Positions 1 through 1,309 of a stretch of 1,309 nucleotides of DNA are shown one piece after another; the stretch's first letter is position 1, and every line of letters starts with the position of its first letter. Source of the stretch: Escherichia coli (GTDB lineage: Bacteria > Pseudomonadota > Gammaproteobacteria > Enterobacterales > Enterobacteriaceae); the NCBI RefSeq assembly GCF_003334355.1, contig NZ_QOWP01000089.1. One strand, 5' to 3'. Below the pieces are notes generated by a model. That model was not told the origin of the DNA. It did no database searches and saw only the letters and a program-made list of their open reading frames with translations. The translations under genes and the position numbers were made by a program.

Positions 1-25
1 TGAACCGCCCCGGGTTTCCTGGAGA
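1..25. repeat. Terminal inverted repeat, IRR relative to transposase orientation
   Basis: Seen in sequence: positions 2-13 (GAACCGCCCCGG) are the exact reverse complement of 1298-1309, and positions 17-25 (TCCTGGAGA) are the exact reverse complement of 1286-1294. Positions 14-16 (GTT) mismatch the partner (AAA). Overall about 21 of 24 paired positions match. Position 1 (T) has no partner inside the window. Confidence 0.85.
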
Positions 26-42
26 GTGTTTTATCTGTGAAC

Positions 43-933
43 TCAGGCTGCCAGATCATCGTTTCCGATGGAAGCATAATAAGCTTTTTCTGCTTCTGCC
101 GGAGGAGTATGGCCCAGCCTTCCCAGCAATCGTCGATTGTTATACCAGTCCACCCACGTTAGTGTGGCCAGTTCCACTTCTGCACGGTTTTTCCAGCTCT
201 TACGGTGTATTACCTCCGCTTTGTAAAGACCATTGATGCTCTCAGCCATCGCGTTGTCATACGAGTCGCCTGTACTCCCTGTTGATGCCAGTAATCCGGC
301 TTCTTTTAGTCGCTCCGTATAGGCCAGTGACACATACTGAGAGCCTTTATCGCTGTGATGGATGGTGCCAGACGGACGACGGGCCCACAACGCCTGCTCC
401 AGCGCATCCAGCACGAATGTCGTTTCCATAGACGATGAGACCCGCCACCCCACGATGTATCCGGCAAACACATCAATGATAAACGCCACATAGACGAAGC
501 CCTGCCATGTGCTGACGTAAGTAAAATCAGCCACCCACAGCTGGTCAGGTCGTTCTGCCACGAACTGACGGTTTACGCGGTCGCCTGCGGCAACGGCTTT
601 CCGGCTGATGGTCGTACGGACCTTTTTACCCCGGAGAACACCGGCAAGTCCCATAACCGCCATGAGACGTGCCACTGTACATCTGGCCACCCTGATTCCT
701 TCCCGTAACAACTGACGCCAGACTTTACGCACACCGTACACCTGATGATTTTCATCGTATACGCGCTGTATCTCTCTCTTCAGCCAGTCGTCGTGCTGCG
801 CACGGGCACTGCGTTTATCCGGATGATGTCGCTGTTGCTGACAGTGGTAATACGTTGACGGGGCAATATGCAGTTCGCTGCATACCGGTCCGACCCCGTA
901 CTGCTCACGCAGCTTATCCAGCAGTGGCATCAT
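43..933 (-). CDS. IS3-family transposase OrfB (DDE / integrase-like catalytic domain; C-terminal part of OrfAB)
   Basis: Seen in sequence: 296-aa ORF, ATG at 933..931 (a second ATG follows at 930..928), TGA stop at 45..43. It lies in the -1 frame relative to orfA. Catalytic triad by motif inspection: D136 in LWVADFTYV (nt 526-528), D195 in HHSDKGSQY (nt 349-351), E231 in [15 protein letters not shown] (nt 241-243). D195 to E231 leaves 35 intervening residues, i.e. the DD(35)E arrangement of retroviral-integrase-like transposases. No internal stops or obvious truncation. Confidence 0.9.
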
Positions 934-941
934 TTTTTCCA
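928..941 (-). other. Putative programmed -1 ribosomal frameshift window (A6 slippery run) overlapping the orfA stop and orfB start (ATGA overlap)
   Basis: Seen in sequence: minus-strand 5'-TGG AAA AAA TGA TG-3', with the A6 run at + coordinates 933..938. In the orfA frame this reads W-K-K-stop; in the -1 frame it reads E-K-M-M and continues into OrfB. Established knowledge: IS3-family elements make the OrfAB transposase by -1 frameshifting on A-rich heptamers (A AAA AAG and similar) near the end of orfA. Inference: this A6 run is the shift site. The exact heptamer here (G AAA AAA, followed by a UGA stop) is not the canonical A AAA AAG. Confidence 0.6.
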
Positions 942-1256
942 GAGGCGGTCGAACTCCGCCTTCGCAAAATAAGCGGAAGCCTGGCGAAGGATATCGTTAC
1001 TGCGGCGCAGTTCACGATTTTCACGTTCCAGCTCTTTCAGACGCTGACGTTCAGCGCTGGTGAGCCCACCATCACCGCCCCCGGTATCCCGCTCATGCTG
1101 GCGAACCCAGACACGCAGAGTCTCCGGCGTACAGCCAATCTTTGGGGCAATGGAACAAATTGCCGCCCACTGTGAGTCATATTCATCCTGACTTTCCAGA
1201 ACCATACGAATCGCCCGCTGACGGACTTCGGGGGAAAAACGAGTATTTTTAGTCAT
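930..1256 (-). CDS. IS3-family transposase OrfA (DNA-binding / regulatory subunit; N-terminal part of the OrfAB fusion transposase)
   Basis: Seen in sequence: 108-aa ORF with ATG at 1256..1254 and TGA stop at 932..930, preceded by a Shine-Dalgarno-like AAGAGG 8 nt upstream. Protein features: a likely helix-turn-helix region around residues 28-52 ([25 protein letters not shown], about nt 1101..1175), a Gly-rich linker (DTGGGDGGL), and a heptad series L76-L83-L90-F97 (about nt 966..1031) consistent with the leucine zipper known for IS3-family OrfA proteins such as IS911 OrfA. Family assignment rests on recalled similarity. Confidence 0.9.
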
Positions 1257-1270: not shown

Positions 1271-1285
1271 TCTCAGGGAGTTTAG

Positions 1286-1309
1286 TCTCCAGGATTTCCG
1301 GGGCGGTTC
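1286..1309. repeat. Terminal inverted repeat, IRL (upstream of orfA)
   Basis: Seen in sequence: reverse-complement partner of positions 2-25 as described for the IRR. The window ends ...CGGGGCGGTTC; a terminal A to pair with T1 (giving the usual IS3-family TG...CA termini) would lie at position 1310, just outside the window. Confidence 0.85.

Follow-up and report, generated by a model that had tools for sequence, protein, structure and literature searches.

Recoding at the orfA/orfB junction of an IS1203-type insertion sequence in Escherichia coli: a U-run with an ALIL pseudoknot and an A-run at the orfA stop

Where, and by which means, ribosomes pass from orfA into orfB is the question raised by the insertion sequence analyzed here, in which a run of six A residues (A6) leads directly into an ATGA overlap of the orfA stop and the orfB start. 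The original prediction, made for a 1,309-nt stretch of Escherichia coli DNA (the window, meaning the whole stretch analyzed), held two routes to OrfB expression to be plausible, namely -1 frameshifting on the A-run, giving the OrfAB fusion that is the canonical transposase of the IS3 family, and termination-reinitiation at the overlap, giving free OrfB. Our analysis separates the two: the ATGA overlap could couple OrfB initiation, as in IS3, but the A-run is not the canonical slip site, and a U-run upstream of it, together with a pseudoknot, takes that place in our preferred reading.

Identity of the element and anatomy of the junction

By sequence search, the window matches an annotated IS1203 copy on an E. 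coli plasmid at 100% identity, and thousands of further copies match it over its whole length at 95%–99.9%. PGAP labels the matching copies as 'IS3-like element IS1203 family transposase' with a 'programmed frameshift', and adds an 'ALIL pseudoknot' feature. Copies in Shigella sonnei 53G and APEC O1 are 96% identical to the window and have an identical A6-TGA junction. The organization is that of the IS3 family, with two consecutive open reading frames, the second in the -1 frame, and imperfect terminal inverted repeats starting with TG at the window ends. Based on the list of open reading frames and a domain search, orfA (minus strand, 930..1256) encodes a 108-aa DNA-binding protein with a helix-turn-helix (HTH_Tnp_1) domain and ends in Lys-Lys-stop (AAA AAA TGA), while orfB (minus strand, 43..933) comprises 296 codons plus a stop and encodes HTH_21 and rve, the DDE integrase core. 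The OrfAB fusion scored 370.7 bits against the NCBIfam IS3 transposase model NF033516, for which the cut-off is 160. Open reading frames, NF033516 and Pfam domains thus agree with the earlier reading, by which orfA and orfB of an IS3-family element meet here and orfB occupies the -1 frame.

The ends of the element were read from the window, which holds element DNA only. Comparison of the two ends identified a right terminal inverted repeat (plus strand, 1..26; TGAACCGCCCCGGGTTTCCTGGAGAG as read on that strand) and a left one (minus strand, 1285..1309; GAACCGCCCCGGAAATCCTGGAGAC...) that lacks its first base, T, the two being imperfect inverted copies of each other. One end begins TGAACCGCCCCGG..., and the other begins with the same letters minus the first T, where the window was cut. 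Window position 1309 lies one base inside the element, which with its first T probably measures 1310 bp as against the 1309 nt of the window. The window is a copy of IS1203/IS629/IS3411, a member of the IS3 family of the ALIL-pseudoknot type, and is complete except for one terminal base.

Re-read on the minus strand, the junction is CTC TGG AAA AAA TGA TGC, exactly as the original prediction had described it. The orfB ATG (933..931) overlaps the orfA TGA (932..930) and is followed by a second in-frame ATG (930..928), so that the sequence at 928..933 on the minus strand reads ATGATG; these letters are internal Met-Met codons of an OrfAB fusion and also a possible coupled start for free OrfB. 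The A6 run (minus strand, 933..938) contains the tetramer A_AAA and lies between the two hairpins of the ALIL structure described below, 5 nt past stem 1 and 34 nt before stem-loop 2. It codes for Lys-Lys in the orfA frame and is read as GAA AAA A(TG) in the -1 frame. Ahead of the orfB ATG, the -1 (orfB) frame is open for 21 codons (minus strand, 934..996), bounded by a TAA at 999..997, and because it is open for about 65 nt upstream of the ATG, a -1 shift anywhere in that interval yields an OrfAB fusion.

Taken singly, neither feature is unusual by count: the window has one AAAAAA where 0.72 would be expected, and 81 of 200 shuffles contain at least one, while ATGA is found 13 times for an expected 10.75. 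Moreover, a TGA stop combined with a downstream gene in the -1 frame forces the overlapping codon to be NTG, which resembles a start codon with any of three of the four bases in first position. Whatever meaning A6 and ATGA have comes only from comparison with relatives.

A conserved U-run upstream of an ALIL pseudoknot

The Rfam model ALIL (RF01497) matched the window at 975..859 on the minus strand over its full length (model positions 1–117) with 121.5 bits (E = 9e-33), the gathering threshold being 50 bits. The model and the alignment of relatives place stem-loop 1 (GGCGG-AGUUCGA-CCGCC) at 944..960 on the minus strand, with its apical loop at 955..949, and stem-loop 2 at 859..898 on the same strand, with an internal loop, UCGGAC, at 893..888 that is complementary to the apical loop of stem-loop 1. 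Between stem 1 and stem-loop 2 lies a spacer of 45 nt, and A6 is inside it. The motif U_UUU_G (minus strand, 965..969; TAT TTT GCG in the orfA frame) stands 5 nt upstream of stem 1 and about 30 bases upstream of the A6 run.

Two sets of relatives were surveyed. The first consisted of ten diverged plasmid copies found by tblastn at 40%–79% protein identity, in all of which ALIL was detected, nine of them exceeding the Rfam gathering score. The second came from a genome-wide scan with the 17-mer of stem 1 alone, a pattern independent of both candidate slip sites, which returned 120 matches; 69 fell within related IS3-type elements, and the other 51, having no tblastn match to the OrfA or OrfB of the window, were dropped as probable chance matches. 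Counts were then taken over 59 distinct junctions, the sequences of which are not phylogenetically independent. An in-frame U_UUY (U_UUU, U_UUC or U_UUU_UUC) was present in 51 of these, nearly always exactly 5 nt ahead of stem 1, and the eight junctions without it are mostly decayed or indel-bearing copies. A6 was present in four, those of the window, Klebsiella michiganensis, Edwardsiella tarda and an ETEC strain, all Enterobacterales, and among enterobacterial relatives it persists to a protein identity as low as about 74%. Since each base change in A6 alters one of two reading frames, this retention cannot separate function from coding constraint. The U-run is conserved across the family, and A6 is not.

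The pseudoknot itself is borne out by covariation. When 34 relatives were aligned without gaps, the helix between the two loops showed six pairs, with 99% of cells paired, and two compensatory double substitutions, one from G-C to A-U and one from C-G to U-A, the latter in the window's own lineage. Because the internal-loop partner strand lay outside the search pattern, this covariation constitutes independent support for the pseudoknot. All 34 relatives also keep exactly 45 nt between stem 1 and stem-loop 2, while the position of the orfA stop varies within that spacer.

Some copies depart from this arrangement in single details. In Shigella sonnei 53G plasmid A, the apical loop reads GUUUGA instead of GUUCGA at the site equivalent to window position 951, which changes a C-G pair of the loop-loop helix to U-G and may weaken the stimulator. 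The 17-mer of stem 1 is common to elements in Proteobacteria, Actinomycetota, Gemmatimonadota and Armatimonadetes, and one distant relative, in an Actinomycetes MAG (JAJZLP010000319.1, motif at 4011), has orfA and orfB in a single frame, with 4 nt rather than 5 between the UUC slip codon and stem 1. The single-frame copy could be a natural fusion or an assembly error.

The same arrangement was described for IS3411 and at least 27 other insertion sequences in the 2016 review by Atkins and colleagues, and an ALIL-type structure stimulates -1 frameshifting in IS3411 according to Mazauric et al. 2008, as cited in PMC5009743. Conservation and placement suggest that U_UUU_G at 969..965 is a family-conserved programmed -1 site for which ALIL would serve as the stimulus. 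That the transposase is an OrfAB fusion made by -1 frameshifting, as originally predicted, agrees with the 'programmed frameshift' annotated by PGAP and with a fusion protein named in RefSeq. The assignment of this shift to the A-run did not hold: it is U_UUU_G that is conserved (51 of 59 junctions, against four for A6) and that precedes ALIL stem 1 by 5 nt, A6 has no stimulator in position, and the transposase named in RefSeq is the fusion made at the U-run.

The last point follows from both possible OrfAB fusions, which were built from the window and then looked up in protein databases. The database name of the U-run fusion (with ...AYF before the joint) is 'MULTISPECIES: IS3-like element IS1203 family transposase'; the protein belongs to a cluster of 442 members and was found on 394 contigs, a RefSeq name being a matter of curation and not of measurement. 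The A-run fusion (...LWKK before the joint and MMPLL... after it) has been deposited too, from 158 contigs. Both fusions are 404 aa long and differ in 11 residues, so a western blot, or the 46-kDa band by which the original prediction proposed to detect the fusion, cannot tell the two slip sites apart. The reporter experiment proposed with it would likewise be confounded, as replacing AAAAAA with AAGAAG is silent for orfA alone; the -1 frame then reads Glu-Glu-Val where it had Glu-Lys-Met, and the orfB ATG is lost.

The A-run and the stop-start overlap

The A-run does not form a textbook heptamer, a point on which the original prediction was correct. In the orfA frame it reads G_AAA_AAA, which fails the X_XXZ_ZZN form, and only the in-phase tetramer A_AAA is available. 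When Sharma et al. compared all tetramers in E. coli, those without a stimulator shifted at about background (0.147% vs 0.112%); with a strong pseudoknot, the order was A_AAG >> U_UUC > U_UUU > C_CCU = C_CCC > A_AAA, which makes A_AAA the weakest of the six pseudoknot-responsive tetramers (PMC4066793). We found no stimulator at 5–9 nt downstream of A6, the next structure being stem-loop 2, 34 nt away, and no suitably spaced Shine-Dalgarno-like element, the nearest GGAG ending 15 nt upstream, within stem 1. A local hairpin after A6 was considered as a stimulator and rejected: it folds only weakly in the window (z = -0.45), the ETEC relative lacks it, and no covariation supports it (covariation term +0.52). 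Going by the size of the ribosome footprint, stem 1 has to be open by the time a ribosome reaches A6, which leaves the pseudoknot unable to act at that point. Among relatives with the same gene arrangement A6 is not conserved, being present at only four of 59 junctions. Together, these observations suggest that the A-run would be at most a secondary frameshift site.

Alleles of the run bear on how the deposited A-run fusion is to be understood. One extra A (A7) occurs in nine complete E. coli records, and in UMNK88 (NC_017641.1 1018264-1019478) it produces a continuous open reading frame of 404 codons that encodes the exact A-run fusion and is annotated without a frameshift; provided that the additional A is genuine and no artifact of sequencing through a homopolymer, this copy would be a constitutive transposase gene. 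The copy in PNUSAE019785 has A7 as well, but its reading frame is broken at codon 227. We rejected the deposited A-run fusion as evidence for annotated slippage on A6, because A7 alleles encode the same protein continuously. The run has a second allele, A5G (AAA AAG TGA); 56 E. coli records match its 61-mer exactly, compared with 3255 for A6-TGA, and copies are present in NZ_CP021289.1 and NZ_BBMY01000230.1 (Escherichia albertii). With this allele the tetramer becomes A_AAG, which is highly slippery, in place of A_AAA, and the orfB start becomes GTG in place of ATG. The notion that IS629 proper is A5G was rejected, since the 96%-identical copies of Shigella sonnei 53G and APEC O1 keep A6 and A5G is a minority allele.

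A7 and A5G suggest a further idea, which we consider unlikely: the enterobacterial lineage may have gained a second control point of its own, located at the orfA stop and toggled by single-base alleles. Under such a scheme, A6-ATGA would combine a weak A_AAA slip with a strong AUG start for the inhibitor OrfB, and A5G-GTGA would combine the most slippery tetramer, A_AAG, with a weaker GUG start. The toggle would then shift the OrfAB/OrfB ratio at the second site, and hence rates of transposition and excision, and A7 insertion alleles would be constitutive transposase copies.

Four other explanations of the junction were weighed. That A6 is the main or only frameshift site for the canonical transposase is very improbable: A-rich motifs dominate the IS3 family, in which 72% of the heptamers in use are A_AAA_AAG or A_AAA_AAA (PMC4066793), and the A-run fusion is found in public databases, yet G_AAA_AAA is no X_XXZ_ZZN heptamer, the U-run and not A6 is conserved across the family, the pseudoknot is placed for the U-run and would, on the footprint argument, be unwound with the ribosome on A6, and the product curated by RefSeq is the U-run fusion. 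We give still less credence, close to none, to slippage of RNA polymerase on the A6 template, by which A7 transcripts would encode OrfAB in a single frame. Some members of the IS3 family do use such transcriptional realignment (PMC3711429, PMC4066793), and the A7 alleles show that the run is slippage-prone at the DNA level, but most relatives lack A6. Moreover, the run has only six residues, and efficient transcriptional slippage in E. coli needs runs of roughly 8–9 or more.

The two remaining explanations concern the orfA stop itself and are more evenly balanced. A6 could be a second site truly programmed for -1 shifting, a 'shifty stop' with tRNA-Lys on the P-site AAA and UGA in the A site, making a second OrfAB isoform with its own role in transposition. 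In its favor, A_AAA is an in-phase Z_ZZN tetramer directly before a stop and is 'well represented' among elements of the IS3 and IS1 families (PMC4066793), a stop codon adjoining a slippery run is a known enhancer of shifting (Weiss et al. 1987, as listed in PMC5009743), the title of a paper on IS629 names two frameshift products, and A6 is kept in all four enterobacterial relatives sampled. These points are offset by the absence of A6 from 55 of 59 related junctions, by the lack of both a stimulator at 5–9 nt and a conserved hairpin past A6, by the rank of A_AAA as the weakest responsive tetramer, with unstimulated tetramers near background at about 0.15%, and by the A7 insertion alleles, which explain the deposited A-run fusion at least partly. 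On balance we regard a programmed second site with a role of its own as rather doubtful, whereas a minor second slip at A6, with its published precedent in IS629, is plausible. Chen & Hu (2006) reportedly obtained two -1 products from IS629, formed at the U-run and at the A-run respectively, and found OrfB to be inhibitory; the A-run is said to have been the second site in that study, its product being functional and stabilizing the other product. If the A-run of the window corresponds to that functional second site, it is more than a bystander.

Alternatively, the functional meaning of the junction could lie in the ATGA overlap, with ribosomes that terminate on orfA restarting at AUG 933..931 (or 930..928) to make free OrfB, a negative regulator of transposition. 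A second AUG follows the first, a weak GGA stands 5 nt upstream, and the A-rich context is unstructured in the centroid fold. According to Sekine and Ohtsubo, IS3 reportedly produces OrfB by ATGA coupling. A stop-overlapping start (ATGA, GTGA or TTGA) is present in 37 of the 59 junctions, and TAATG in three more, although this count sits on the NTG that frame geometry forces by construction and the junctions are phylogenetically non-independent; ATGA itself accounts for 27 of the 59, which is 27 of the 45 members with a TGA stop. Conversely, eight junctions have CTGA, about 11 have TAG or TAA without a nearby start, no strong Shine-Dalgarno sequence precedes the AUG, and this AUG doubles as an internal methionine of OrfAB, such that its conservation may reflect constraint on the protein. 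As for the product, OrfB of IS629 was reported to reduce transposition when supplied (PMC5771124). Coupled initiation at ATGA may thus be considered plausible, while not universal in the family and confounded by the dual role of the AUG; that it is what the junction is for seems a real possibility, toward which we lean somewhat less than not.

Proposed recoding and comparison with known systems

Taken together, we favor, with a probability of roughly 0.8, a reading in which slippage at the U-run with ALIL makes OrfAB, the unshifted majority of ribosomes makes OrfA, and minor side events take place at the stop. A small fraction of ribosomes would slip by -1 at U_UUU_G (969..965), stimulated by the ALIL pseudoknot. 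These shifted ribosomes would read the A6/ATG region as the sense codons GAA AAA AUG AUG (Glu-Lys-Met-Met) and would go on to make the 404-aa OrfAB transposase. The unshifted majority would read AAA AAA UGA (Lys-Lys-stop) and release the 108-aa OrfA. Two optional minor events may be added, namely a low-level -1 slip of tRNA-Lys on A_AAA beside the stop, which would give the second 404-aa fusion, and termination-coupled initiation at AUG 933..931 or 930..928, which would give free OrfB. Which of these recoding events occur, and at what rates, we infer from the sequence and its relatives.

In E. coli O157:H7 and Shigella, IS629/IS1203 is more active than any other insertion sequence; it drives strain diversification and gene inactivation, and its transposase output depends on this recoding region. 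The region is already known through experimental work on IS3411 and IS629 and through its curated entries in Rfam and RefSeq. The value of the present analysis is corrective: reporter and mutational designs must target the U_UUU_G/ALIL site, and the dual coding of the overlap must be allowed for, lest effects be wrongly credited to the A-run.

Among known systems, IS1203/IS629/IS3411 is the same element as the window, with the ALIL pseudoknot, the U_UUU_G site, orfA and orfB all shared and no difference of substance beyond the one absent terminal base. IS3 of E. coli also has orfB in the -1 frame, an ATGA overlap, a tetramer slip motif and a downstream pseudoknot (for the pseudoknot, PMC4066793); it differs in slipping on A_AAG by means of a compact H-type pseudoknot, whereas the window has U_UUU_G with a long-range pseudoknot between an apical and an internal loop, and the window's A-run beside ATGA is not the conserved slip site. 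IS911 is a further IS3-family member that makes OrfA, OrfAB and OrfB, and its orfA likewise has an A-rich slippery run close to its end. In contrast to the window, in which the A-run offers only a tetramer with no stimulator in position, IS911 uses a genuine A_AAA_AAG heptamer together with a Shine-Dalgarno-like stimulator upstream and a structure with a three-way junction, and its OrfB starts at AUU. In IS6110 of the Mycobacterium tuberculosis complex, which likewise belongs to the IS3 family, a GAGCUCGACC-type hairpin and pseudoknot lie directly downstream of the slip site, as at the U-run of the window, and the slip site has been placed directly upstream of this equivalent hairpin (PMC5896891), the slip motif being UUU AAA G there and U_UUU_G here.
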